A DNA stretch of 64,000 bases from Planktothricoides raciborskii GIHE-MW2 (GCF_040564635.1 NZ_CP159837.1:35801-99800), one strand, 5' to 3'. Positions 5,101 through 55,472 are shown, counted from the first letter of the stretch. Notes: generated from the letters alone by a model not told the origin. Translations and numbers: made by a program.

Positions 5101-8100
5101 CAGTTCCATCACTGCGACCAATAGTAATACTGCTAAATCCATTAGATAAATTCGCGATTTCTGCCAGAGAAATGTTAAAGGTTCCGGTTTCACCTCCAAT
5201 TTCAATGGGAGTATTTTGATTAAATGGTTGTAAGATTAAATTGCCTGGACTGGTGAGAGTATTATTTAAGGCAATAGTATCGCCAGTAAAAGTGATATTA
5301 CTGGCGGCATTAATCGCCCCGGTGGTAGAAATGCCGCCATTATTTGCCGTGACATTTAAAAGACCGCCACTGGTTAGGTTATTGTTGAGAGAGATAGAAT
5401 TTCCCGTCAGGGTAATATCTGTCCCCGCTTCAACAATTTCCGTAGAAATATCGCCATTATTTGCCGTGACATTTAAAAGACCGCCACTGGTTAGGTTATT
5501 GTTGAGAGAGATAGAATTTCCCGTGAGGGTAATATCTGTCCCCGCTTCAACAATTTCCGTAGAAATATCGCCATTATTTGCCGTGACATTTAAAAGACCG
5601 CCACTGGTTAGGTTATTGTTGAGAGAGATAGAATTTCCCGTGAGGGTAATATCTGTCCCCGCTTCAACAATTTCCGTAGAAATATCGCCATTATTTGCCG
5701 TGACATTTAAAAGACCGCCACTGGTTAGGTTATTGTTGAGAGAGATAGAATTTCCCGTGAGGGTAATATCTGTCCCCGCTTCAACAATTTCCGTAGAAAT
5801 ATCGCCATTATTTGCCGTGACATTTAAACTACCGCCCACCGTAGAACTGCCTAAATTTACTGCATTAGCACTGGTAATATTAGCATCAGCCCCAGCGCCA
5901 TTAGTATTGACCGTAATTATTCCCGGTGTTGCTAGTTGACTTAAAGTAATATCTGCCCCAATTGCAGTAGTCGTAAAAGTGCTATTTCCCCCAATGGCGA
6001 TCGGGCTATTCCCAGTAATATTGCCATTTGCTGTAATTTCTAAATTACCGGAAATGTTAGCCGTTCCTAAACTAAGAGTTTGGCCGTTATTCACAAACAA
6101 ATTTCCTGTAACATTATTAATATTTATTTGGCTAACATTTGTCTCCAAAGAATTCAACGAATCGCCCACACTTCCCGATGTATTTAAGACTACAGTACCA
6201 TTAGCGGCGATCCTGATATCTGTCCCGGTAAAAGGGCTGGTAATGCTACCAGTATTTAAAGTTAAAGTCCGATTATTACCCAAGGTAATGCCGTCATTAA
6301 ACGACACCGCCCCACCCTGTAAGGTCAGGTCAAAAGTCTGGTTACTTAAATTAACGGGACTGGCAATATTAAGCGCTCCCGTGCCACCCGTGCTACCAAT
6401 TGTCACCCCATTAAATCCACTGATTGACTGAAGTTCTGCTTCGGTTAAATTCAAACCCGGTGACTGGTTAATCCCACCGATTTCAATTGGTGAGTTATCG
6501 ATTATTGGTTGCACAAGTAAGCTGCCATTACCGGATATTGTCCCATTGATATTTAATTCCCCAGCAGTGATTTGTGGGTTGGAATTAACAAAGGTGACGT
6601 TACCGTTATATTCTTGAGTGCCAAGAGTGGTGACATTGCCATTAATACTTGTGTTTTGTCCTAATATGTTAAGACTATTCAGACGGGTATTATTACCAAC
6701 GGCGCCACCAATATTAACATTGCCAGTCCCCGCATTTAGGGTTAAATTGTAACTCCCGTCTATAGTTCCCTGAAAATCAATAGTACCAGATCCACTATTC
6801 AAAGTAGCATCAGCCCCTAAAGTGGTGTTGCCGATAATGCCGATGTTTTGATTGTTAGTAGTAATATCGGCATTTAATGTTGTTGGGCCGATGAGAGTCA
6901 CAGAAGCGTTATCATTTCCCAAAATTTGAAAATTGTTTGTAATCGAACCACCGGGAGACTGAATCGTCACTGGGTCTGAAAATCCTAGACCGGAAGTTGG
7001 CCCATCGATAGTAATGGCACCCGTACCGTCAGCCCGTCCAATAGTAATAGAATTAAAACCGTTTTGAATATTAGCTAATTCTGACTCGGTTAAATATAAA
7101 ATCCCTACTCCAGTACCTCCAGACCCTCCCAGGGAAATATTTTGCCCCACGGTGGTAGGTTGCAGAGTTAGACTGCCCGTACCAGAGATACTACCTACAT
7201 TGTTAATATTAATTTCGTCTGCTGTGAGAGTGAGGGCATTATTTCCAACAATTAAAGGAGCATTTATTTCAATTGACCCCGTTCCACCCTGAATAATTGT
7301 AGTTGTGCTTAAAGTGAGAGAAGGAGCGTTGCCGCTAATTTCAATAAAGTTTGTGGCATCAGTACGACCAATAGTAATCGAGTTAAATCCCGCATTTTGC
7401 AGTAAATTGAACTCGCTATTACCGCTAGAGTTGCTGTCCAGACATAAGAAGCCTGGACTACATCCGGTAGAATTGTTAATATAAATACCCTGATTGCTGT
7501 CCCCTTGCTGAATGACTAAATCTAGTCCGGTTTGAGTGGTGGATATAGTATTGGTATCTAAGTTAATATCATTGGCCGTAAGGGTGACATAATTGCCAAA
7601 TTGAACTGTCGGCGGACTATTAGCCCTTCCTGCTCTGCGTAAGTCAATAAAACCAATTCCCGCATCAATATTTCCATTGACGGTAATGGTGCTGTTGCTG
7701 CCAGTTTCCGCGATGAAATTTCCCCCATTGGTGGTGATATTTCCCAGATTAATTTGATTTCCTGTGCGGGAAGAATTACCCGCTGAAATTGTGATATCTC
7801 CTCCCTGTGTCACGATCGCATCCGCAGGATTCATAGTAAAATCACCGACTCCATTAAAATCAGCATCGGCGATCAAACTCACTGATCCAGCAGCACCCAT
7901 TTGCAGACTCAGGGTATTGTCTGATAAGTCTTCAATAGTGATATTGTCGGCGGCTTCTAAAATAATACTACTATTAGCCCCGATCGCTTCTAATGCCGTT
8001 TCAGAAATAGTGTAATTTGCGCCTGCGGTGAGCGTATCATCGAAAATGACTCCTTCGGGATCGCCAAAAGGTTCACCCGCATTCAATTGGTTATCATTAG

Positions 8101-9837: not shown

Positions 9838-10040
9838 TATTAAGTGCCGATAAGGGCGAAGCATTCAGGTAATTATCTTTCTGGTTAAAACCGATAATTA
9901 ACTGCCGATAAGGGCGAAGCATTCGGGTAATTATCTTTCTGGTTAAAACCGATAATTAACTGCCGGTAAAGGCGAAGCATTCAGGTAACAACTACTGTTA
10001 AAACAAGCAAGTTAACTGCCCGAATGCTTCGCCCCTACAG
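9838..10040. repeat. Three tandem ~63-bp units containing the motif GGGCGAAGCATTC. An inverted copy of the motif (AATGCTTCGCCCCTACAG) follows.
   Basis: Direct reading. The same motif family recurs at 21815-21885, 22100-22195, 53340-53640 and 56107-56185. Confidence 0.8.
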
Positions 10041-13182: not shown

Positions 13183-13245
13183 TCAGAAACCGGGTTGCGG
13201 TAATTTCTACCCAAGATAAGAAACCCGGTTTCTGTCACCCGCAGA
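13183..13245. repeat. Pair of inverted GAAACCGGGTT/AACCCGGTTTC palindromic elements just downstream of a gene stop.
   Basis: tcagaaaccgggttgcgg...agaaacccggtttctg. Confidence 0.7.
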
Positions 13246-20832: not shown

Positions 20833-21060
20833 ATGGCAAGCAACATTTCTTTAGAAGAACAGATCGCCGCAGTCAAGGCAGCAATTATTGAATTTCAGAA
20901 ACAAATTGCGACCCCTGAACCAACCAATTGGCTAGAACAAATTACCGGATTTTTCAAGGATGAACCAGCCTTTGAGGAAGTCCTTGCTTATGGGCAAGCA
21001 ATTCCCCAAGGGGATGAGATTGTAATGGAATCTGAAGACGAGCGATCGCCATATTTTTAA
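20833..21060 (+). CDS. Small hypothetical protein (75 aa).
   Basis: ORF with a plausible RBS. No family assignment. Confidence 0.3.
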   Translation: MASNISLEEQIAAVKAAIIEFQKQIATPEPTNWLEQITGFFKDEPAFEEVLAYGQAIPQGDEIVMESEDERSPYF

Positions 21061-21202
21061 AGATTATTCAATGACTTGTAGCAAATCTTATGTCAAAAAA
21101 TTACAAGGATAAATTACTACCGTGACTTGGGAAATAGAATATACTGATGAATTTCAAGGGTGGTGGTAAATTCTGCAATAAACACAGCAGGATGATATTA
21201 TT

Positions 21203-21481
21203 GTGATTGTCCAATTACTAGAAGAAAAAGGGCCAAATTTACCTTTCCCGTATTCTTCTGGGGTGAATGGCTCAAAACATTCTCATTTAAGAGAATTACG
21301 CATTCAAAGTGGAGGCAAGCCTTTAAGAATTTTTTACGCTTTCGATCCGCGACGCACTGAAATCTTATTAATCGGAGGTGATAAAACTGGGGATAACCGA
21401 TTTTATGAAAAGTATGTGCTAATCGCCGATAGGCTATACGATGAATACCTTAAAGAACTACAGCAAGAGGGATTATTATGA
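21203..21481 (+). CDS. Type II toxin, RelE/HigB superfamily (Gp49-like).
   Basis: 92 aa. Reads LRELRIQSGGKPLRIFYAFDPRRTEILLIGGDKTGDNRFYEKYVLIADRLYDEY, the Gp49/HigB pattern. It lies upstream of the antitoxin with a 4-nt ATGA overlap. Confidence 0.8.
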   Translation: MIVQLLEEKGPNLPFPYSSGVNGSKHSHLRELRIQSGGKPLRIFYAFDPRRTEILLIGGDKTGDNRFYEKYVLIADRLYDEYLKELQQEGLL

Positions 21482-21759
21482 GCGGACATCATAAATTTAA
21501 TCAATTAATCGAAAACATTTCACCAGAGAGAAAAGCGAGGATTGCCCAGAAAAACGCCCGGATTCAGCAAGAGATGGCGTTAAATGAATTACAGCAAGCC
21601 TTTTTACAAAAGCAAACAGATATTTATATAAATCATTTGCGAGAAGTTATTGCACTCATGGGCGGTGAATTAATTATTAAAGCGAAGTTTCCCGATCGCG
21701 AAGTCACCATTAATAGTTTTAGTGAATTGCTGTCTGATAAAAGTTCAGATCGGACATGA
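21478..21759 (+). CDS. XRE-family HTH antitoxin partner of the Gp49-like toxin.
   Basis: 93 aa. The C-terminus reads IYINHLREVIALMGGELIIKAKFPDREVTIN, matching the conserved tail of HigA-type antitoxins paired with Gp49 toxins. Confidence 0.7.
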   Translation: MSGHHKFNQLIENISPERKARIAQKNARIQQEMALNELQQAFLQKQTDIYINHLREVIALMGGELIIKAKFPDREVTINSFSELLSDKSSDRT

Positions 21760-21814
21760 ATTTAGAACAGGTGCATTCCATGTTTTTCTGAGTTGCCTGG
21801 GTTTGTAGGGGCGA

Positions 21815-22195
21815 AGCATGACCGCCGATATTTATGATTCAAATATAGATTTAACTGCGGTCATGCTTCGCCCTTCTATGGCCAAATATTGATGCCAATC
21901 CCAAAAATTATCCGCGCAATTAATAAATTAGCTTGAAGCATTTGCGGCCAAATACAGCGGTTATTGTCCTAATTACAGAGGTTTTATGGATTCCCGCCGG
22001 AGTTTACCCCCGCGAAGGCGTGGGGCGGGAATGACAGTTGTTTTGTAATTCATAAATATGACAATTGCTATATTGATGCCAATCCCAAAAATTATCCGCG
22101 CAATTAATAAATTAGGGCGAAGCATTTGCGGCTAAATATTGATGCCAATCCCAAAAATTATCCGCGCAAATGCTTCGCCCCTACGGATAATCTCA
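21815..22195. repeat. Repeat cluster. It contains a 17-bp perfect inverted repeat (GGGCGAAGCATGACCGC...GCGGTCATGCTTCGCCC), three copies of ~45-bp TTGATGCCAATCCCAAAAATTATCCGCGCAATTAATAAATTAG, and GGGCGAAGCATT palindromes.
   Basis: Direct reading. Confidence 0.8.
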
Positions 22196-22196
22196 T

Positions 22197-24131
22197 TTAT
22201 GTTTCTGCCAAACCCACCCCCTGTTGTTGCAAATAATACGCCACTCTTTCCCGCAATTGATCCACGGTTAAATTTTTTGTCCAATATTCCACTAAACCAT
22301 GACCAAATGCCCAAGCATTCCGGTCAGGAGAGGCAGGATTTTCTAATAACAATGGCCAAATTGCCAGTAATTCAAAATTGACCTGATTATTGTCGTTACT
22401 TAATAACGTAAACAAGTCATAAGCCATTTGTAATTTACCAATTACCATCGGCAACTGTTCAATGGGAATTTTTTCTGCTAATAAATAGGCTAAGGTGGGA
22501 TTTCCGGTAGTTAATGTCGAAATAAATTGCAATACCGGACTTTTTAATAAAGCGGTTAGCCCTTGGGTGGTGGACATTTGAAATGTGTAGCGATCGATGA
22601 TTTTGGCGGCGGCAATGGTACGAGTTTCTAAGTCTCGGAAAAACCGGGCTAACCGTAATTGTTTGACCGGCGCGATCGCCTCTATCAAACTTAAAGATAG
22701 GCTGTCAATATTCCACCCTTGCCGATCGCTTTTCGGGTCAAAACTGACCACCGGCAACACCCGATCGCAGAATTCTCCTAACATTTCCGTGCGATATTCT
22801 GTGGCTTCTCGGATCGATTTTTCCTTCGGGCGATCGCCCCAAACCCAATCATAAGGGGGTTGCCATTCGCGAATTGGACGCAGGCGATCGACCTGAGTGA
22901 CAATTGCGATCGCGGGTAAATCTTGCACCTCTTTTTTAATATCCTTAAGAAAATCCACATCCATTTGCAAAGCGGGATCTAATGCCGGAGTCACCAGTAA
23001 TAATAAATCCGCATTATTAGCATATTCTAATACTTGGTCACGCAAGTCGGATTTATTCACTTGTTCATAACCGGGACTATCCCAAAGAGTCAGAGTTTCT
23101 CCGGTGTCCGTTTGCCAATGGTAACTTTGAATGCGATCGGTACTCGGCAACACATCCACTGCGGCTAATTCTGCCTGAAATATGGTATTAATTAGACTAC
23201 TTTTCCCCGCCCCAGTTCTGCCTACTAATAAAATATTCACCGGCTTTTGCTCCACTTTTTCCGGGGGATCTGCTGCCGCCAAAATTTCTTGTAAAGTCTG
23301 CGTTTTTGCTTTCGGCAAACTAGGAGTAGATACCGCCAAATTTTCCCCTGGAAGTTGGTTGCCTCCGTAGAGTGCGATCGCCTGCCGACACAGGTTTCGC
23401 AGGGCTGCTTCCCGCACCATAAAACTCAAGTTTGCCAATAATTGCTGATTAGCTTGTTCGCTATATTTCTTACTAGCTACTCGCGCTGCCGCTGCTGCTG
23501 GGTTCACCAACCATTGTACCCACCCCCACGCTTGCATTAATTTGCGTGCCGAAGGTTCTAATTTGCGATAAATTTCATAAGCTTGATAAGCTTGCCCCAC
23601 AGTGACTTGATTCAGTACCGGGGATAATTGCTGCATCCACCGATCCATATCATCCACCGTCCCCCGAATTAAACCATAAGCTTGAGGCACATAAATATTC
23701 AGCAACGGGTATTTTACTGTTGGGTGATAAATATGGGCAACTGCTATCACCATGTCTTGACATTCTTGCCAAAAATTTTGCCAATCATCCCATATCGGGC
23801 GATCGCTTTGAGACTCTTTTAATATTTTTTGTAATGCCACTTCTGCTTTTTTGGCAGCATCATCCGCCCCTAGTTTTTGTTTAGTTTCCTCATTGATTAT
23901 TTCTATTTTTTCATTCATAGAAGCGATCGCTGCTTCTACCTCGTCAATTTGCGATCGCGTCCAGCGAACTATAAGCGATCGCCACCCCACTAAAACCAGA
24001 GTGACAACCCCCCAAATCCAATTAATCCCCCATTCGCTAATTTGGGTTCCTGCTGCTACTAGGAGAAACGTAATAATGAGGGCGATCGGGAGGGCTAAAA
24101 CCACCCACTGCCAAAGTTTTAAACGTACCAT
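22197..24131 (-). CDS. Membrane-anchored GTPase (MMR_HSR1/Era-like G domain, N-terminal 2 TM plus coiled coil).
   Basis: 644 aa. G1 is LVGRTGAGKSSLIN, G3 is DSPG, G4 is TQVD. Hydrophobic helices occur at residues ~8-50. Confidence 0.8.
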   Translation of the reverse strand: MVRLKLWQWVVLALPIALIITFLLVAAGTQISEWGINWIWGVVTLVLVGWRSLIVRWTRSQIDEVEAAIASMNEKIEIINEETKQKLGADDAAKKAEVALQKILKESQSDRPIWDDWQNFWQECQDMVIAVAHIYHPTVKYPLLNIYVPQAYGLIRGTVDDMDRWMQQLSPVLNQVTVGQAYQAYEIYRKLEPSARKLMQAWGWVQWLVNPAAAAARVASKKYSEQANQQLLANLSFMVREAALRNLCRQAIALYGGNQLPGENLAVSTPSLPKAKTQTLQEILAAADPPEKVEQKPVNILLVGRTGAGKSSLINTIFQAELAAVDVLPSTDRIQSYHWQTDTGETLTLWDSPGYEQVNKSDLRDQVLEYANNADLLLLVTPALDPALQMDVDFLKDIKKEVQDLPAIAIVTQVDRLRPIREWQPPYDWVWGDRPKEKSIREATEYRTEMLGEFCDRVLPVVSFDPKSDRQGWNIDSLSLSLIEAIAPVKQLRLARFFRDLETRTIAAAKIIDRYTFQMSTTQGLTALLKSPVLQFISTLTTGNPTLAYLLAEKIPIEQLPMVIGKLQMAYDLFTLLSNDNNQVNFELLAIWPLLLENPASPDRNAWAFGHGLVEYWTKNLTVDQLRERVAYYLQQQGVGLAET

Positions 24132-24274
24132 TGTTTAATAAACCGGGTTTGTGTAATAACTTTGCCATTATAACGAATTACGGTTTTTGATTTAGGGGCA
24201 ATATTGTATGATATACTGGATACAAAAGCTACCATATCTGAAGAATACATGATCATTTCGCGTTCGGGTGGAAG

Positions 24275-25423
24275 ATGAATAAATTGGAAAATATATCAGT
24301 AAAGGGTTTTCGCCGTCTTCACAATATTGACCTTGAGATGAGAAATCTCACCGTGATGATTGGCGCGAATGGATCCGGAAAAACTTCTTTTTTAGATGTT
24401 TTTTCCATCCTAGCTGCTTCCGCCAGTGGAAATTTACATCAACAATTACAACTAAAAGGCGGATTTCATGAAATTTTGACCAGAGGGAAAGCGCGAGAAT
24501 TAGAAATTTCCCTGGCAATGAACGTACCAGACAGAGAACCTTTAAAGTATCGTTTAGCCTTATCTCCGAAAGGTTTATCCTATGAAATTAGAGAAGAAAC
24601 TCTAACCCAACAGAGCGACATCTACGCCCCTGAACCTTTTAAATATATTCAATCCGATGGTTTAGACATTAAATATTTTAGTCAGGAAGATTCCCGAATC
24701 TTAAGACCAACTTGGGAACACAATCCCCTGGAAACTTCTCTTTCTCAAGTTCCAAAAATGTATCGCGAACCGGAAAATTTGCGAAAGAGTCTTGCTTCTT
24801 GTACCTATTATGGCGCACTGGATGTTTCCGAAAAAAGTCCGATTCGTTTACCTCAAGCAATGCGCCCTGCAAAATTGCCTGGTGCCAAAGGTGAAGACTT
24901 GGTTTCCTGTCTTTATGACCTGCGAGAAAGCGATCGCGATCGCTTCGAGTTTCTGGAAAATATTCTATCTGCTGCCTTTCCCGATTTTGAGCGATTAAAC
25001 TTTCCTCCGGTTGCCGCTGGAACTATTTCTATGACTTGGACAGATAGAAATTTTTCTCAACCAATTTATCTCCATGAATTATCAGAAGGAACCTTACGTT
25101 TTTTGTGGTTGGCAACGCTTATACAAAGTCAAAATTTAACTACAATCACCTTAATCGATGAACCAGAGGTGAGTTTGCATCCCGACCTTTTAAGACATTT
25201 AGTCTATTTAATGAGAGAAGCGGCAAAACACACACAACTAATCGTAGCTACCCACTCCGATCGACTGATTGGATTTCTAGAACCCCACGAAGTTTTGATT
25301 TGCGATCTCGAAGAAGGAGAAGCAAAAATGAACTGGGCTGATACACTTAATTTAAGTAAATGGTTAGAAGATTACAGCCTTGACCAAGTTTGGGCAATGA
25401 ATATCATGGGAGGTCGTCCATGA
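24275..25423 (+). CDS. ABC-type AAA_21-like ATPase (OLD/AbiL-like ATPase component).
   Basis: 382 aa. Walker A is GANGSGKTSFLD. Walker B and D-loop read ITLIDEPEVSLHPDLLRHL, followed by H-loop ATHSD. Confidence 0.85.
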   Translation: MNKLENISVKGFRRLHNIDLEMRNLTVMIGANGSGKTSFLDVFSILAASASGNLHQQLQLKGGFHEILTRGKARELEISLAMNVPDREPLKYRLALSPKGLSYEIREETLTQQSDIYAPEPFKYIQSDGLDIKYFSQEDSRILRPTWEHNPLETSLSQVPKMYREPENLRKSLASCTYYGALDVSEKSPIRLPQAMRPAKLPGAKGEDLVSCLYDLRESDRDRFEFLENILSAAFPDFERLNFPPVAAGTISMTWTDRNFSQPIYLHELSEGTLRFLWLATLIQSQNLTTITLIDEPEVSLHPDLLRHLVYLMREAAKHTQLIVATHSDRLIGFLEPHEVLICDLEEGEAKMNWADTLNLSKWLEDYSLDQVWAMNIMGGRP

Positions 25424-26035
25424 AAATTGCTATAAAAATTGCTATTTTGGTTGAAGGAGATACTGAAGTTGCATTTCGGGAAAAATTTCGGGATTTTCTG
25501 ACAAGTCATTTAGGGCAAAATATGCCCAAGCTGAAATTTATTCCCCAGCATGGTCGTATTCCCAAGGAAGGGAAAGCGTATGGTAGAAAATCTTTTAGAC
25601 AATGATGACTATGATGCTGTCATTGCCCTGACAGATGTTTACACAGGAACAAATGATTTTCAAAATGCGGCTGATGCTAAAGCTAAAATTACTAATTGGG
25701 TGGGAAACAACCCAAGATTTTATCCCCATACAGCATTACATGATTTTGAAGCATGGCTAATTCCTTACTGGGATACGATCCAAAAATTGGCCAAACATAA
25801 TCTTTCTGCTCCCAGTGGTTCCCCTGAAAGGGTGAATCACAATAACCCTCCTGCTGAGAGAATTAAAGATATTTTTAGAAGGGGAAAATGTAGCAGACAC
25901 TATAATAAACCCATTGATGGCAAAGCGATTTTAAAGAACAACGATTTAATGGATGCGATTCAAGCTTGTCCAGAGCTAAAAGCTTTTGTGAATCGAATTA
26001 TTTTTCTGTGCGATGAAACTAAAGTAATTCCTTGA
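25420..26035 (+). pseudogene. DUF4276-family gene partnered with the ATPase, interrupted by a +1 frameshift near 25550-25600.
   Basis: The start overlaps the upstream stop (ATGA). The N-terminal part MKIAIKIAILVEGDTEVAFREKFRDFLTSHL and the C-terminal part DYDAVIALTDVYTG...ALHDFEAWLIPYW...NHNNPPAERIKDIF are in different frames (track ORFs 25390-25605 and 25550-26035). Confidence 0.65.
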
Positions 26036-26043
26036 AGAAATCA

Positions 26044-26110
26044 ATAAACCGGGTTTCTGAGATAATTGTTGGATTGTCACCAAAATCTTTCAGAACAAAC
26101 CCGGTCTCTG
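26044..26110. repeat. GAAACCGGGTTTC palindromic element pair between convergent genes.
   Basis: aaaccgggtttctgag...cagaacaaacccggtctctg. Confidence 0.7.
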
Positions 26111-26243
26111 ATTGTATGAAGTACAGTCTAATTCTCAAAACGCCCGCATCCCTCCCTTCCCTGTTCCCCGTTCCCCGTTCCCAGGACGCGAAGCGAAGCG
26201 CTGTAAATTAATCCAGAAATTAATCCAGCAATTAATCCAGGAA

Positions 26244-27761
26244 TTAATCCAAAGGCCCAAAATACTCCGAGGTAAAATTGCCGTGCAATCCGTAAGGAAT
26301 ATGATAATTCAAATGCAAGCGGGCTACAGGTTCTTTATGCAAATTCCGCGCATCCAAAATCACTAAATCGGAACGATGATGGGCGGCATCATAGACTAAT
26401 ACTAACAGCCAGCCATCATCTTCTTTACTGCTGCCAGGACGGGGGACAAATACAGGTTCACCGACAAACCCACGGGGGGCAGCACTCCAAACTTGCTGTT
26501 CTCCGGTTTTTTGGTCAAGTTTCAGAATTGCTTGAAATGGGGCATTGCCACTATGATTGTGAGTGGTGCCAATATACAGATACCGATAGGAACGTCCCAC
26601 ATTATTAGGATTAATTTGCGGAAATTCACAGGCGCGAGTGGTTAAGATTTGATGCTCTACTTGATGCTCTACTTGGCTAGTTTCTAAGTTGGCTTGGAAA
26701 CGCCATAACTGTCCTGGAGGATATTGCTCAAAATCCACTTCCCGAAAATCAATATCCGGGTCTAAGGATGGGTAAGAGTCATAACAAATCGAGTCAATAA
26801 ATAGCCGCTCGCCTTCTTCCCAAGCATTGCCATGATGGAAGACAAAACAAGGCTCGGTTTCCAGTATTTTCACTTCTCCTTGGCCATTGCGGGGAATTAA
26901 AATCACTTTGGTTTTGGCTTCCCGGTTAAATTGAATACATTCCCCTGCACTCGACCAGCCTAAGATAAATTTTAGGGGATTGAAGCTAACTGGATTTTGG
27001 AAAAAGATACAGTAATTTTCCGTAATCGCCATATCATGCAAAAAGGCAAATCCAGGCAGAGAATGAGCTTGACGGCGGAGTAATTTTCCGTTCGGATTAA
27101 ATTCATAAATGGTAATCGTGGTGGATGGCCCTGCTTTGACGGAGAAATTCACCAAACAAGGGGCGCCGCCATCCATTGCACAACTGGGGTCAAACCGAGG
27201 ATGGGCGGCAAAAGGTTCCCCTGGTTGTAAAATTCCCCCTAGGTCATCAATGCCCAAGGTTTCTAACGTATTTGGATCGAGGCGATGGGGTCCTTCTGCT
27301 TCCCATAAGGCTAACAGTTTGTTGCCCCAATAAATAATATTGGTGTTGGCAATATTTTTCAGTTTTAAGTCAAATAAATTCGCCAGCCAGCCCCCTGGTT
27401 TTTGGGTGCCAAATACGCCGCGATAGAGAATTTTTCCGGCGGCTTGTTCTTTGACAAATCCTTCAGTGCGAACAAAGCGATTGCTAAAATAGGCTCGCCC
27501 ATTTTTAAAGGCAATTTTGACAATCATGCCATCCCCATCAAAGGGGTGGGCAATAGGCTGACCGTTGACATCACTTAATCCTGGGCCATTTCTAAATAAT
27601 GTGCCGTTGAGTTCTGGGGGAATTTGTCCCTCAATATTTTCAATCCAATAGTCGGTTTCTTGGGTTTGGGATTCGTAGCCTCTTTTCCAGTCTTGGCGAT
27701 TATAGGGTTTAATTTCTGTTTTGATGTTTTGGCTGGTGGTTAAACGGTCTTGAGTTTGCAT
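26244..27761 (-). CDS. Carotenoid cleavage oxygenase (apocarotenoid oxygenase, RPE65 family).
   Basis: 505 aa with conserved His-containing beta-propeller blades (FHHGNAWEE, HPRFDP, FAHDMAI-like segments). Confidence 0.9.
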   Translation of the reverse strand: MQTQDRLTTSQNIKTEIKPYNRQDWKRGYESQTQETDYWIENIEGQIPPELNGTLFRNGPGLSDVNGQPIAHPFDGDGMIVKIAFKNGRAYFSNRFVRTEGFVKEQAAGKILYRGVFGTQKPGGWLANLFDLKLKNIANTNIIYWGNKLLALWEAEGPHRLDPNTLETLGIDDLGGILQPGEPFAAHPRFDPSCAMDGGAPCLVNFSVKAGPSTTITIYEFNPNGKLLRRQAHSLPGFAFLHDMAITENYCIFFQNPVSFNPLKFILGWSSAGECIQFNREAKTKVILIPRNGQGEVKILETEPCFVFHHGNAWEEGERLFIDSICYDSYPSLDPDIDFREVDFEQYPPGQLWRFQANLETSQVEHQVEHQILTTRACEFPQINPNNVGRSYRYLYIGTTHNHSGNAPFQAILKLDQKTGEQQVWSAAPRGFVGEPVFVPRPGSSKEDDGWLLVLVYDAAHHRSDLVILDARNLHKEPVARLHLNYHIPYGLHGNFTSEYFGPLD

Positions 27762-27848
27762 GGTTGTGAGTTATGTTGTGTAAAAATAATCAAGGTGTAA
27801 CGGTTTTTCCTCGTTCCCATAATTAAGCTAGGAACGAGGAGTTGGGGA

Positions 27849-29261
27849 TTAGGTAGAGACAGGAATTTTTGCTTCGATCGCTGATTCATCGATCGCCGAT
27901 TCAGAGGAATTTTCTCCAGGTTTACCGATTGGTAGATCGATACTTTGACTGTGAGTTTCTGGTAGCCAATTGATCAAAGGTAAGGGTAAAAGAGTGCTGA
28001 GGTTGGTGACGATGACTAATAACCAGAGGCGATCGAAGTTGCTTTCGGTGACGCCAAACCAATGGGTGAGTAAGGCGCCGAATTGATAAGACAACATTCC
28101 GGCTAAGTTGTTGACGGACATGAGTAAGGCAAATAAGGTGGCTTCGACTCCTGGGGGGCAAAGTCGGGCGGCGAGAATGAGTACGGGCATATAGGCAATT
28201 TGTCCCATGACCGTGAGGATTAAGCTGTCCCCCAGGCTGAACCACTGGTCATCAATGCCGATCGCCCGGTTGGCATGAGTCACCAGTAGCAAGGTGGTCA
28301 GACCGAGGGCGGTGGAAAGAATGGTAGACCAGATAAAAATTTTCCGAAAGGGAATGGTGCGGAAAAAGCGCTGAAATAACCAAATTCCCGCGAGAGAGGC
28401 AAGGCTGGTGACTAGGCGAACTCTACCCAAGAATTCTGGTTGAAATCCCAGTTCGTTGGTGGTGAAAAAGAAAAAGGCGGAGTCACTGGAAGGGGTGGCT
28501 TGCCATAGGAAGATGAAAGCAGTGGGCATCCAGATGGCTTTTTGCCCGATCGCACTTTTGAGTTGGCTGACTTGTTGCTGAATATTTTGCAGTCCAGAAC
28601 CGCTGGTAACTTTTTCTTCGGCAATTAACCAAGCCACCGCTGAAACCAATAAAGGAAAAGAGGCGGTGATGAAAAATACGGTTTGGACGCTGAAGTGTTC
28701 TAACAAAGACCCGCTAAAATACGCGGTGATTAAACCGCCCAGGGCAGAAATTCCCCAGGATAATGATTGCAAAGAACCGGCATTTTGTGCGGTTTCCTGG
28801 CGCGATCGCTCGACCACCAGAGAGTCCACAATCACGTCACTAACCGCCACAGACAAGGAACTGAGTAACATTACCGCCGTCGCAGCCCAAGGGGTATGTA
28901 CCACCGTAGCCAGTGTGACCCAGGCAGCGCTTCCCATCAATCCCGACAAAATGATGTAGGGTCGGCGCCGATAGCCGAATATCGGTAAGCCGTCGGACAT
29001 AAACCCAAATAAGGGCTTGATCACCCAAGGTAAGGCGGCAATGCCGGTTAAGGCCGAAACCTCCGCTGGACCCAAGCCCAGTTCATCTTTGAGGAAGAAG
29101 CTGACCGCCAAACGCGCTAGACCCAGGATGCCTTGGACGAAATACACCAACAAGATGGCGATGACTTCCGGGCTGGGTTCGTTGCCAAACAAGAGTTTTT
29201 GCTTAACTGATTGTTTTACGGATTGTTTCAACTTGTCTATATAACTCGGTGCGATGAACAT
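27849..29261 (-). CDS. Folate-biopterin transporter (FBT/BT1 family, MFS-like).
   Basis: 470 aa with 12 TM. PWVIKPLFGFMSDGLPIFGYRRRPYI is typical of BT1 transporters. Confidence 0.8.
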   Translation of the reverse strand: MFIAPSYIDKLKQSVKQSVKQKLLFGNEPSPEVIAILLVYFVQGILGLARLAVSFFLKDELGLGPAEVSALTGIAALPWVIKPLFGFMSDGLPIFGYRRRPYIILSGLMGSAAWVTLATVVHTPWAATAVMLLSSLSVAVSDVIVDSLVVERSRQETAQNAGSLQSLSWGISALGGLITAYFSGSLLEHFSVQTVFFITASFPLLVSAVAWLIAEEKVTSGSGLQNIQQQVSQLKSAIGQKAIWMPTAFIFLWQATPSSDSAFFFFTTNELGFQPEFLGRVRLVTSLASLAGIWLFQRFFRTIPFRKIFIWSTILSTALGLTTLLLVTHANRAIGIDDQWFSLGDSLILTVMGQIAYMPVLILAARLCPPGVEATLFALLMSVNNLAGMLSYQFGALLTHWFGVTESNFDRLWLLVIVTNLSTLLPLPLINWLPETHSQSIDLPIGKPGENSSESAIDESAIEAKIPVST

Positions 29262-30054: not shown

Positions 30055-31170
30055 GTGACTGAGATGACCAACTGCCAATCTGTTCGCACAGTTGTTACCG
30101 ATCGGCATCAGAAGCGATCGCACAGTAGTTTCCCCTCTCCAGGGGAAGTGCCGACAATAGCGATCGGTTTAATCCAAATTGAGATGGCTGACGCGATCGC
30201 CCGCTATGCATTATGGCCTTCCCCCACAGTAATTATTTCTGATGGGGCTTATGGATTAGGTCTTTTTCCTGGAGATCCACCCACAGCCACCCATCTGGCA
30301 GACTGGTATGCCCCTCATATTGAGGCTTGGTCGCGCTATGCTTTACCAGAAACAACCTTATGGTTTTGGTGTAGCGAAATTGGCTGGGCAACAGTACATC
30401 CAATTTTGGCCAAAAACGGATGGGAATATCGTTCTGTGAATGTTTGGGATAAAGGAGTTGCCCATATTGCCGGAAATGTTAATAGTAAAACGATTCGTCG
30501 TTTTCCAATTGTCACAGAAATCTGCGTGCAATATATCCGCAATGTGACATTAGCCAATGGGGATGGTCAATGCTTACCGATGCAACAATGGCTACGTTAT
30601 GAATGGCAAAGAACTGGATTACCTTTTTCTAAAACTAATGAAGCTTGTGGGGTGAAAAACGCCGCAACTCGCAAATATTTTACCAAAGATCATCTGTGGG
30701 ATTTTCCCCCACCAGAAATGATGGAACGTATTGCAATTTATGCAAATGAACATGGTCAGCCAACAAAATGGCCGTATTTTTCTTTAGATGGTAATTCATT
30801 TGTCACCGCCCAAGAATGGTCACGAATGCGAGCAAAATGGAACCACATCCACGGGGTGACAAATGTTTGGTCAGTTCCCGCAGTTCGGGGAACAGAACGT
30901 CTTAAGAATACCCAAGCCAAGTGTGTCCATGCTAACCAGAAGCCACTGAGTTTAATTGAGCAAATTATTGTGGCTTCTAGCGATCCGATGGATGTAGTCT
31001 GGGAACCTTTTGGGGGTTTATGTTCTGCGGCGATCGCTTCTCAGAAAAAGAACCGTCGCTGCTATTGCTATAGTGCAGAAATTAACCCAGATTATTATGA
31101 ACTGGCAAAAATGCGGATTCAACAAGAGTACGATTTACGCGCATCAGCTTTATTTCCTGAGTTTTTCTAA
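30055..31170 (+). CDS. Solitary N6-adenine/N4-cytosine DNA methyltransferase (beta class, DNA methylase N-4/N-6 domain).
   Basis: 371 aa. A DPP-type motif (FPGDPPTA) precedes the C-terminal SAM motif EPFGGLCSAAIA. No restriction enzyme partner is adjacent. The exact start is uncertain (possibly M at MADAIARY). Confidence 0.8.
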   Translation: MTEMTNCQSVRTVVTDRHQKRSHSSFPSPGEVPTIAIGLIQIEMADAIARYALWPSPTVIISDGAYGLGLFPGDPPTATHLADWYAPHIEAWSRYALPETTLWFWCSEIGWATVHPILAKNGWEYRSVNVWDKGVAHIAGNVNSKTIRRFPIVTEICVQYIRNVTLANGDGQCLPMQQWLRYEWQRTGLPFSKTNEACGVKNAATRKYFTKDHLWDFPPPEMMERIAIYANEHGQPTKWPYFSLDGNSFVTAQEWSRMRAKWNHIHGVTNVWSVPAVRGTERLKNTQAKCVHANQKPLSLIEQIIVASSDPMDVVWEPFGGLCSAAIASQKKNRRCYCYSAEINPDYYELAKMRIQQEYDLRASALFPEFF

Positions 31171-40442: not shown

Positions 40443-40514
40443 GGCTCAGTAGCTCAGTGGTAGAGCAGGGGACTCATAAGCCCTTGGTCGCGTGTTCAAA
40501 TCACGCCTGAGCCA
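40443..40514 (+). tRNA. tRNA-Met (anticodon CAU; could alternatively be lysidine-modified tRNA-Ile2).
   Basis: Cloverleaf read by hand. The acceptor GGCTCAG/CTGAGCC pairs with a G1-C72 pair, so it is not an initiator. D-arm is GCTC/GAGC. Anticodon loop CTCATAA has CAT at 40475-40477. T-arm is GCGTG/CACGC with TTCAAAT. The discriminator is A and CCA is not encoded. Confidence 0.85.
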
Positions 40515-53299: not shown

Positions 53300-53640
53300 A
53301 TGGATATAAATAATATAAATAATATAAATATACATATAAATATACCCGTCCTGGCGAAGCATTCGCGGATATACCTCTACGACAAATACAACGGTTTTAT
53401 GCTGTATATAAATATACCCGTCCTGGCGAAGCATTCGCGGATATACCTCTACGACAAATACAATCGTTTTCGTTCCGGTAAGCTTTCGCCATGCCAAAGG
53501 CTATATGCTTTGCCTCTACATATACGCAAATACAACGGTTTTATGCTGTATATAAATATAGTCCGAAGGGCGAAGCATTCGCGGATATATTTCTACGAAA
53601 AATACAATGGTTTTCGGCGCGAATGCTTTGCCCCTACTAC
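53300..53640. repeat. Tandem ~70-bp repeats (3-4 copies), each containing the palindrome GGCGAAGCATTCGCGG and ACAAATACAACGGTTTTATGCTGTATATAAATAT.
   Basis: Direct reading. Track ORFs 53288-53665 and 53297-53497 are artefacts. Confidence 0.85.
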
Positions 53641-55265: not shown

Positions 55266-55350
55266 TAAATCAGAAACCAGAAATTCAGAAACCGGGTTTC
55301 TTTAATAAACCTTGGCTAACCAGCAAAAATTATCGCAAAAACCCGGTTTA
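55266..55350. repeat. MITE-like unit: GAAACCGGGTTTC ... AAAACCCGGTTT flanking ~40 bp, homologous to the units at 1800-1945.
   Basis: cagaaaccgggtttctttaataaaccttggctaaccagcaaaaattatcgcaaaaacccggttt. Confidence 0.8.
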
Positions 55351-55472
55351 TTCCTAAACTCCTTTGTGTCCTCTGTGTCTTTGTGGTGAATTATTCATTA
55401 ATGCCAATGGGCAAATTTATCCAGATGATGTAAGAATCTTTATATTTTAGTCGCAGGGAATCTGCCTTAATT

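Follow-up and report, generated by a model that had tools for sequence, protein, structure and literature searches.

The two-gene cassette at positions 24275-26035 of a 64,000-nt stretch of the Planktothricoides raciborskii GIHE-MW2 chromosome (NZ_CP159837.1:35801-99800; hereafter the window) is a degenerate member of an already known candidate defence family, HEC-01 (Hma-embedded candidate 01 in PADLOC), which combines an ABC ATPase with a TOPRIM partner (bioRxiv 10.1101/2024.01.29.577857). Its first gene (gene A) encodes the ATPase, and its second gene (gene B), which encodes a Toprim protein of the DUF4276 family, is interrupted by an inherited 5-nt deletion. We judge, with a probability of about 0.8, that this deletion broke a HEC-01-type cassette and that what is left is a defence locus in ordinary decay, most likely without function. 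The features of the cassette are as follows, with lengths in amino acids (aa) and positions counted from the first letter of the window.

24275-25423, + strand: gene A, ABC-type AAA_21 ATPase, 382 aa, open reading frame (ORF) intact (WP_354635446.1, AAA family ATPase)
24362-24388, + strand: Walker A motif GANGSGKTS of gene A
25079-25093, + strand: ABC signature motif LSEGT of gene A
25151-25186, + strand: Walker B/D-loop LIDEPEVSLHPD of gene A
25247-25261, + strand: H-loop ATHSD of gene A
25408-25413, + strand: Shine-Dalgarno (SD)-like GGGAGG before the ATG of gene B
25420-25423, + strand: ATGA overlap of the gene A stop (TGA, 25421-25423) and the gene B start (ATG, 25420-25422), a translational coupling
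25420-25605, + strand: N-terminal remnant of gene B in frame A, 61 aa, beginning MKIAIKIAILVEGDTEVAF (hypothetical protein WP_354635447.1)
25450-25467, + strand: invariant Toprim motif VEGDTE in the N-terminal remnant
25573-25576, + strand: deletion junction in gene B, where intact orthologues have five more bases (CTCAA or an equivalent register), GGGAAA[CTCAA]GCGT
25577-26035, + strand: C-terminal remnant of gene B in the +1 frame (RMVENLL...KVIP, then stop), from helix alpha2 to the C-terminus (151-aa DUF4276 protein WP_354635448.1)
25580, + strand: ATG of the C-terminal remnant, with an SD-like AAGGAAGGG ending 8 nt upstream
25628-25642, 25739-25759 and 25823-25840, + strand: motifs LTDVY, HDFEAWL and PERVNH of the C-terminal remnant

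Gene A aligns over its full length with ATPases of the HEC-01 type. Specifically, the PADLOC model HEC-01A (PDLC04175) matches residues 2-382 on profile positions 4-362 of 363 with an expectation value (E) of 1.4e-71, Pfam AAA_21 (PF13304) matches at E 2.8e-45 over profile positions 1-303 of 304, and Pfam AAA_15 matches at E 2.3e-25. Weaker PADLOC matches are to AriA (6.6e-36), AbiLi (5.6e-26, partial) and mad3 (1.2e-23), the GajA and PtuA models score far below HEC-01A, and in NCBIfam gene A lies far under the cut-offs of MAD3 (84.6 bits against 420) and PtuA. The case that gene A is a housekeeping ABC-transporter ATPase followed by an unrelated ORF, which the sequence-only reading of this DNA had allowed for, could appeal to weak N-terminal P-loop matches to many transporter ATPase models; such matches, however, span only ~40 residues around Walker A and stay far below cut-offs, the full-length best matches are HEC-01A, AAA_21 and AAA_15, no permease or substrate-binding gene is present among the neighbours, and the conserved partner is a Toprim protein. 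Domain and neighbourhood results thus practically rule it out.

Gene B carries the two halves of one DUF4276 protein in two frames. Its -3 overlap with gene A is the same in all intact orthologues examined, with B starting 4 nt before the end of A (~43 loci). In the N-terminal remnant, codons 1-52 are genuine DUF4276 sequence (beta1-alpha1-beta2), followed by nine out-of-frame codons and a stop, and positions 25550 to 26035 are open in the +1 frame. The C-terminal remnant matches DUF4276 (PF14103) at E 3e-29 over profile positions 44-191 only; the joined frames, which read IPKEGK and then RMVENLLDNDDYDAVIALTDVYTGTNDFQNAADAK across the junction, form a 204-aa protein that matches positions 1-191 of 192 (E 7.6e-31). 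The N-terminal piece alone has no significant Pfam match, and it is 65-80% identical to the N-termini of intact homologues. The PADLOC model HEC-01B gives E 2.4e-14 for the C-terminal fragment, 2.4e-17 for the frame-restored protein (positions 13-224 of 230) and 2.3e-19 for the closest intact homologue, P0001, while no NCBIfam model for the gene B nuclease was found and the match of restored gene B to PF20469 (OLD-like_TOPRIM) is sub-threshold (E 0.072). The 382-aa ATPase with its motifs, the stop/start overlap and the fit of both frames to DUF4276 had all been proposed from the bare sequence, and all three are borne out.

In an alignment of 42 diverse gene B homologues, E12, G13, E16, D74 and C185 are invariant, and E112, A113, W114, P137, E138 and N141 are nearly so; D74 lies inside an L-x-D-x-Y motif, and conservation in this subfamily does not extend to the first Asp of a DxD motif. 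For P0001, an AlphaFold2 model (predicted local distance difference test 93.6, predicted template-modelling score 0.90) has the order beta1 (6-11), alpha1, beta2 (37-42), alpha2 (50-63), beta3 (68-75), alpha3, beta4 (102-108) and a helical C-terminal part, and the best structural match of this predicted fold is the Toprim region of a class 2 OLD protein. A sequence search for a solved DUF4276 structure found none. At the 5′ end of gene B, a 12-nt tandem duplication (25420-25443, and 8001-8024 of the related locus L065; ATGAAAATTGCT ATAAAAATTGCT) produces the start MKIA-IKIA, which occurs only in the Planktothricoides alleles and L065, other relatives starting MKIAILVEG.

Comparison with intact orthologues, all of which are in frame, locates the lesion exactly. 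P0001 (206 aa, 91% identical) reads ...GRIPKEGKLKRMVENLL... where the two frames of the window give ...GRIPKEGK (A) and KRMVENLL... (B). Gene B measures 621 nt in the intact locus L065 and 616 nt in the window, and the sole gap is 5 nt; the site reads GGGAAACTCAAACGT in L065, GGGAAACTCAAGCGT in most relatives and GGGAAAGCGT in the window, and the same exact gap holds against L065, L074, L075 and more distant orthologues. The deletion is flanked by short AA...AA microhomology, removes Leu-Lys at the start of helix alpha2 (at its first turn, by the P0001 model and the alignment) and shifts the frame by +1. The +1 frameshift that the sequence-only reading had placed loosely near 25550-25600 is therefore real, and it is not diffuse.

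The deletion is real and inherited. The junction 24-mer is present in 16 of 16 further Planktothricoides-type assemblies, which come from different samples (Logan SRA/DRA runs and JGI and ENA metagenomes), and in 0 of 59 other loci fetched. Together with the window, these assemblies represent nine distinct alleles, 97.3-100% identical over the cassette, all carrying the deletion and all in one genomic position (GTPase, A, B, RPE65-type carotenoid oxygenase, BT1 transporter), whereas intact versions are found in a sister context, with an FRP gene downstream, in L065, L074 and L075. Because all nine alleles carry it, the deletion predates the diversification of the sampled Planktothricoides population. 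That the gene is intact and the break an error of sequencing or assembly, a second option of the sequence-only reading, would fit the commonness of single-base indel errors in some assemblies and the fact that PGAP raised no pseudogene flag and annotated two separate proteins. The difference, however, is 5 nt long and lies outside any long homopolymer, and the same junction is found in the complete genome and in 16 independent assemblies with distinguishing single-nucleotide polymorphisms, so that an error is virtually excluded.

Both genes of the deletion-bearing clade are under relaxed constraint and change in a near-neutral manner. Variable sites among the alleles amount to 24 nonsynonymous and 12 synonymous (24N:12S) in gene A, 8N:1S in the N-terminal part of gene B and 12N:6S in its C-terminal part, counts that do not differ from neutral expectation (p 0.11-0.70) and do differ from those of intact orthologue pairs (p <= 0.008). 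In a same-sample control with six alleles, the adjacent GTPase gene has 36N:72S, against 21:15 for gene A (p 0.010) and 19:8 for gene B (p 0.0008). The L066/L067 lineage has an extra 4-nt deletion in the ATPase gene (24422-24425), leaving ORFs of 58 and 315 aa, and frame A of gene B stops after 55 or 61 aa depending on the allele, the responsible change being silent in frame B. Near-neutral drift of both genes and the loss of the ATPase frame in one lineage make the cassette most likely a non-functional remnant; inactivation, which the sequence-only reading had listed as one possibility, is favoured by the lineage-specific deletion together with this pattern of substitution.

In the intact protein the Toprim glutamates are E12 and E16, and the deletion cuts them off from D74, E112 and the remaining fold, so that standard translation would yield no single polypeptide with a complete active site. 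Programmed +1 frameshifting, the remaining option of the sequence-only reading, could restore one if tRNA-Lys slipped from AAA (25573-25575) to AAG, the one slip conceivable here, and produced a 204-aa DUF4276 protein minus two residues. Such a slip would fall exactly at the junction and recover the conserved ...EGK-RMVENLL, the restored product matches DUF4276 and HEC-01B end to end, and the frameshifted allele is fixed in the clade. We nevertheless consider programmed frameshifting very unlikely, given that the site was made by a lineage-specific deletion and is not conserved in the in-frame orthologues, that the A-site codon is an ordinary GCG, neither slow or rare nor a stop, that no internal SD at prfB-like spacing was identified, and that the downstream RNA shows no excess of structure over shuffled sequence (z -0.76). 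Moreover, substitution is near-neutral, with no sign of purifying selection, in both frames (the 8N:1S and 12N:6S above), and the frame-A stop moves among alleles without consequence.

A functional split gene is another, and also decidedly unlikely, way to retain activity: the N- and C-terminal fragments would be translated separately, the latter from the ATG at 25580, possibly by coupling or re-initiation, and would come together as an active Toprim nuclease in two pieces, still able to work with the ATPase. The SD-like sequence before that ATG, the position of the break between secondary-structure elements (end of the beta2-alpha2 loop and start of alpha2), the openness of both ORFs across alleles up to 2.7% divergent, and the pairwise ratio of nonsynonymous to synonymous substitution rates (omega, dN/dS) of the C-terminal fragment (0.17-0.44, below that of the N-terminal fragment) are all compatible with it. 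Against it, the N-terminal fragment has eight nonsynonymous changes to one synonymous, gene B as a whole is neutral-like and unlike the GTPase control, the ATPase partner is relaxed too and is frameshifted in L066, and the out-of-frame tail ends at either of two points. Furthermore, no conserved split occurs here in other lineages, the intact relatives being single proteins of 200-206 aa.

Several points weigh against our reading of the locus as a decaying remnant. The ATPase ORF is intact in eight of the nine alleles, and none of them has a further stop in the 151-aa C-terminal ORF; from ~18 variable sites, roughly 0.8 stops would be expected in that ORF, so its stop-free state carries no information. 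With an ATG and an SD-like sequence of its own, the C-terminal remnant may still give rise to a protein fragment. The substitution counts are small, and dN/dS is inflated at very low divergence; in addition, clustered changes at 24281-24292, 24466-24469 and 24692-24711 suggest recombination patches rather than independent mutations. With regard to the system itself, the B subfamily has one invariant Asp and no clear DxD motif, and the first HEC-01 homologue tested gave no defence in Escherichia coli (bioRxiv 10.1101/2024.01.29.577857). One HEC-01 representative has since been reported to protect E. coli B against at least one phage (PMC12881386).

The divergence among Planktothricoides strains is uneven along the locus. 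Identity in the flanking genes RPE65 and BT1 is 99.7-100% (dS 0-0.009), and the GTPase-A-B block (22197-26035 against 26244-29261; L066, L068, L070 and L073) is far more divergent, with dS up to 0.148 and in-frame indels in the GTPase gene. The boundary near 26035-26244 suggests old alleles or recombination imports.

A comparative scan with one genome per species recovered 56 related loci, from genera that include Microcoleus, Nostoc, Phormidium, Symploca, Prochloron, Snowella, Leptolyngbya and Pseudanabaena. The ATPase is 65-87% identical to these relatives, across several orders, and the cassette belongs to a cyanobacteria-specific HEC-01 subclade. In ~43 loci both genes are intact, with a B protein of 200-206 aa encoded adjacent to and co-oriented with A, and intact pairs are under purifying selection, with an omega of 0.07-0.24 in A and, in most B pairs, of 0.08-0.27. 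ORF clustering of 57 loci revealed no conserved third gene or neighbour, and a tblastn search for the GTPase was negative in all 56 related loci, so that outside the Planktothricoides group it is never next to the pair, indicating that the cassette is a self-contained two-gene unit. In a check for carriage on mobile elements, ATPase relatives on plasmids were <31% identical, and the nuclease had no phage match.

About 12 of the 54 evaluable related loci are broken, and B is affected in 11 of them. Gene B is truncated or replaced in L009, L010 and L050, absent in L013, interrupted by a nonsense codon in L021 (at the catalytic Glu codon) and L037 (codon 33), and frameshifted in L029, L041 and L060; deletions fuse A to B in L059 and L063, and A alone is frameshifted in L056. 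Counting the window lineage, single-gene lesions number nine in B and one in A, with A being 1.9 times longer (binomial ~5e-4 by our own arithmetic, some frameshifts in metagenome-assembled genomes being possible assembly errors). The L060 frameshift, in a Richelia metagenome-assembled genome, falls near the site of the window deletion and raised the question of a hotspot; the lesion is of another kind (1 nt) and comes from a low-coverage assembly whose ATPase is also broken, and we treat it as not meaningful because the chance of co-location is ~0.07. In Microcoleus (L019/L033 and L024/L030), the genus of the two strains with nonsense codons in B (L021 and L037), the Toprim gene has an omega of ~1 and the ATPase of 0.16-0.24, and the nuclease seems to be relaxed or decaying across that genus too. 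In Nostoc sp. P12569 (L059:6001-7137), the deletion joins ATPase residues 1-228 in frame to DUF4276 residues 49-206, and the fused ORF is without Walker B, the signature motif and the Toprim Glu.

By analogy with the literature on OLD, Gabija and PARIS and by structural matches, an intact system would use an ATPase oligomer that senses a phage cue, serves as a scaffold, and binds and restrains the nuclease; the cue would release or activate the Toprim nuclease, which would cut nucleic acid and abort the infection. Reliance on analogy is a further point against our interpretation. In an ancestor of the sampled Planktothricoides strains, the 5-nt microhomology deletion broke gene B, after which both genes drifted almost neutrally and one lineage also lost the ATPase frame. 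Loss of the nuclease first, with survival of the ATPase ORF, would fit a toxic effector restrained by its ATPase partner, and the strong bias of the related loci towards loss of B would likewise fit an effector that is selected against when unrestrained. More speculatively, the deletion might act as an attenuator of the dose of a toxic effector, through a two-piece Toprim protein or a low-level +1 product at AAA-G that still works with the ATPase; separately, the B-biased loss might reflect a toxin-antitoxin-like dependency in HEC-01, with the ATPase restraining its partner as AriA does in PARIS. We regard these proposals as unlikely.

The genes beside the cassette are as follows.

22197-24131, - strand: membrane GTPase, 644 aa, with a central MMR_HSR1/dynamin-like G domain
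21203-21481: Gp49/HigB-like toxin gene
21478-21759: putative antitoxin partner of the Gp49/HigB-like toxin, 93 aa, with no family match

The sequence-only reading had noted a membrane GTPase and a toxin-antitoxin (TA) pair next to the cassette; the GTPase and the toxin gene are present, and the antitoxin remains putative. The GTPase, 642-651 aa among strains, has weak PADLOC matches to LeoA and LeoBC (E 1e-12 to 1e-14). As parts of the system, the GTPase and the TA pair were considered and rejected on the tblastn and ORF-clustering results above. The region upstream of the GTPase (20833-22200; L066:1-1500; L065:2400-6650) is a swap site, which holds the Gp49/HigB-like toxin and its 93-aa partner in the window and L068, a BstXI-like restriction enzyme, an N6_N4 methylase and a helix-turn-helix gene in L066, and VapB, a methyltransferase fragment and BrnT/BrnA in L065; it looks like a small hotspot for integration of TA and restriction-modification genes. 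On the other side, an N6_N4 DNA methyltransferase gene at 30055-31170 (PF01555, E 4.6e-14), with no adjacent restriction enzyme, is kept at the same position in all Planktothricoides loci.

Two repeat families occur in the window. The first is a dispersed, near-palindromic intergenic repeat, (A/G)AAACCGGGTTT, that resembles repetitive extragenic palindromes or miniature inverted-repeat transposable elements and often forms inverted pairs ~50 nt apart; it has 19 matches in the window against 0.9 expected, and 31 in L065. Its positions are listed here.

1848-2157, 13218-13234, 24137-24150, 26043-26056 and 55286-55352: dispersed repeat in the window
L065, intergenic regions: dispersed repeat in the related locus

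The 14-nt direct repeat AATAAACCGGGTTT that flanks the cassette (24137-24150 and 26043-26056, 1906 nt apart) was considered as a pair of insertion scars and rejected because its motif is this genome-wide intergenic repeat. The second family has GGGCGAAGCAT hairpins at its core (21805-22204, 9839-9988 and 53334-53614). A 69-nt unit is present three times, together with several inverted arms, in the interval that separates the TA pair from the 3′ end of the GTPase gene, and tandem arrays with the GGGCGAAGCAT core lie elsewhere. A 12-nt tandem repeat, AAATTAATCCAG, marks the meeting point of the convergent DUF4276 and RPE65 genes; it is present in 3.9 copies (26205-26251) and overlaps the last bases of the RPE65 ORF (3′ end 26244). 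Rfam models match nothing in the region, the sole match in the window being a tRNA (40443-40514).

The practical value of these results lies mainly in annotation. GenBank lists three proteins here, an AAA ATPase, a 61-aa hypothetical protein and a 151-aa DUF4276 protein, and unless the locus is recorded as a disrupted HEC-01-type cassette, censuses of defence systems would score it as present or miss it. Beyond this locus, the conservation of the cyanobacterial HEC-01 subclade (omega ~0.1, intact copies) and its spread across orders argue for a natural role. Roughly one copy in five is broken, and the lesion nearly always lies in the nuclease; this bias points indirectly to a Toprim partner that is costly or toxic as an effector and is kept in check by the ATPase. 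The corrected annotation and the nuclease-biased decay across cyanobacterial HEC-01 loci are the most useful outcomes.

Finally, we compared the cassette with known systems. DUF4276 has been placed in the Toprim superfamily, as the domain family of Mad4 and of the C-terminal domain of Menshen NsnC (PMC12065111), and among the effectors associated with AAA15/21 ATPases in a PARIS phylogeny (PMC11464382). The OLD family (class 2 OLD of Burkholderia pseudomallei, PDB 6NK8; P2 Old; GajA of Gabija) shares the OLD-type Toprim fold predicted for the intact gene B homologue. In OLD proteins and GajA, however, ATPase and Toprim domains reside in one polypeptide, whereas they are encoded by separate genes here and in all relatives, for which reason the cassette is not an OLD-family member; sequence identity is only 12-16%, and no UvrD or GajB-type helicase partner is present. 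PARIS combines an ABC ATPase, AriA, with AriB, a DUF4435 Toprim nuclease; the cassette is not PARIS because its effector is DUF4276 rather than DUF4435, and gene A, at 382 aa against ~464 aa for AriA, scores far better with HEC-01A models than with AriA. MADS (mad3/mad4) and Menshen NsnC likewise pair DUF4276 Toprim modules with AAA_21-type ATPases. The cassette does not belong to MADS, its MAD3 score falling far short of the cut-off; the mad4 match is marginal (E 0.003-0.04) and covers the N-terminal 70 residues only, and no methylase or other mad or nsn gene is adjacent. Nor is it AbiL, since no AbiLii model matches gene B, and the partial AbiLi match of gene A is far weaker than that to HEC-01A. 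Of the OLD/AbiL-like label in the sequence-only reading, the OLD-like fold and the two-gene, defence-type pairing stand, while AbiL is only loosely apt and HEC-01 is the more precise name. Unlike HEC-01 as defined in PADLOC, the cassette does not have both ORFs complete, gene B being split, and it lies outside any Hma system, among housekeeping genes by a small variable spot of TA and GTPase genes. Like HEC-01, it consists of two adjacent, co-oriented genes with the ATPase first, and HEC-01A and, after restoration of the frame, HEC-01B match it over their full length.

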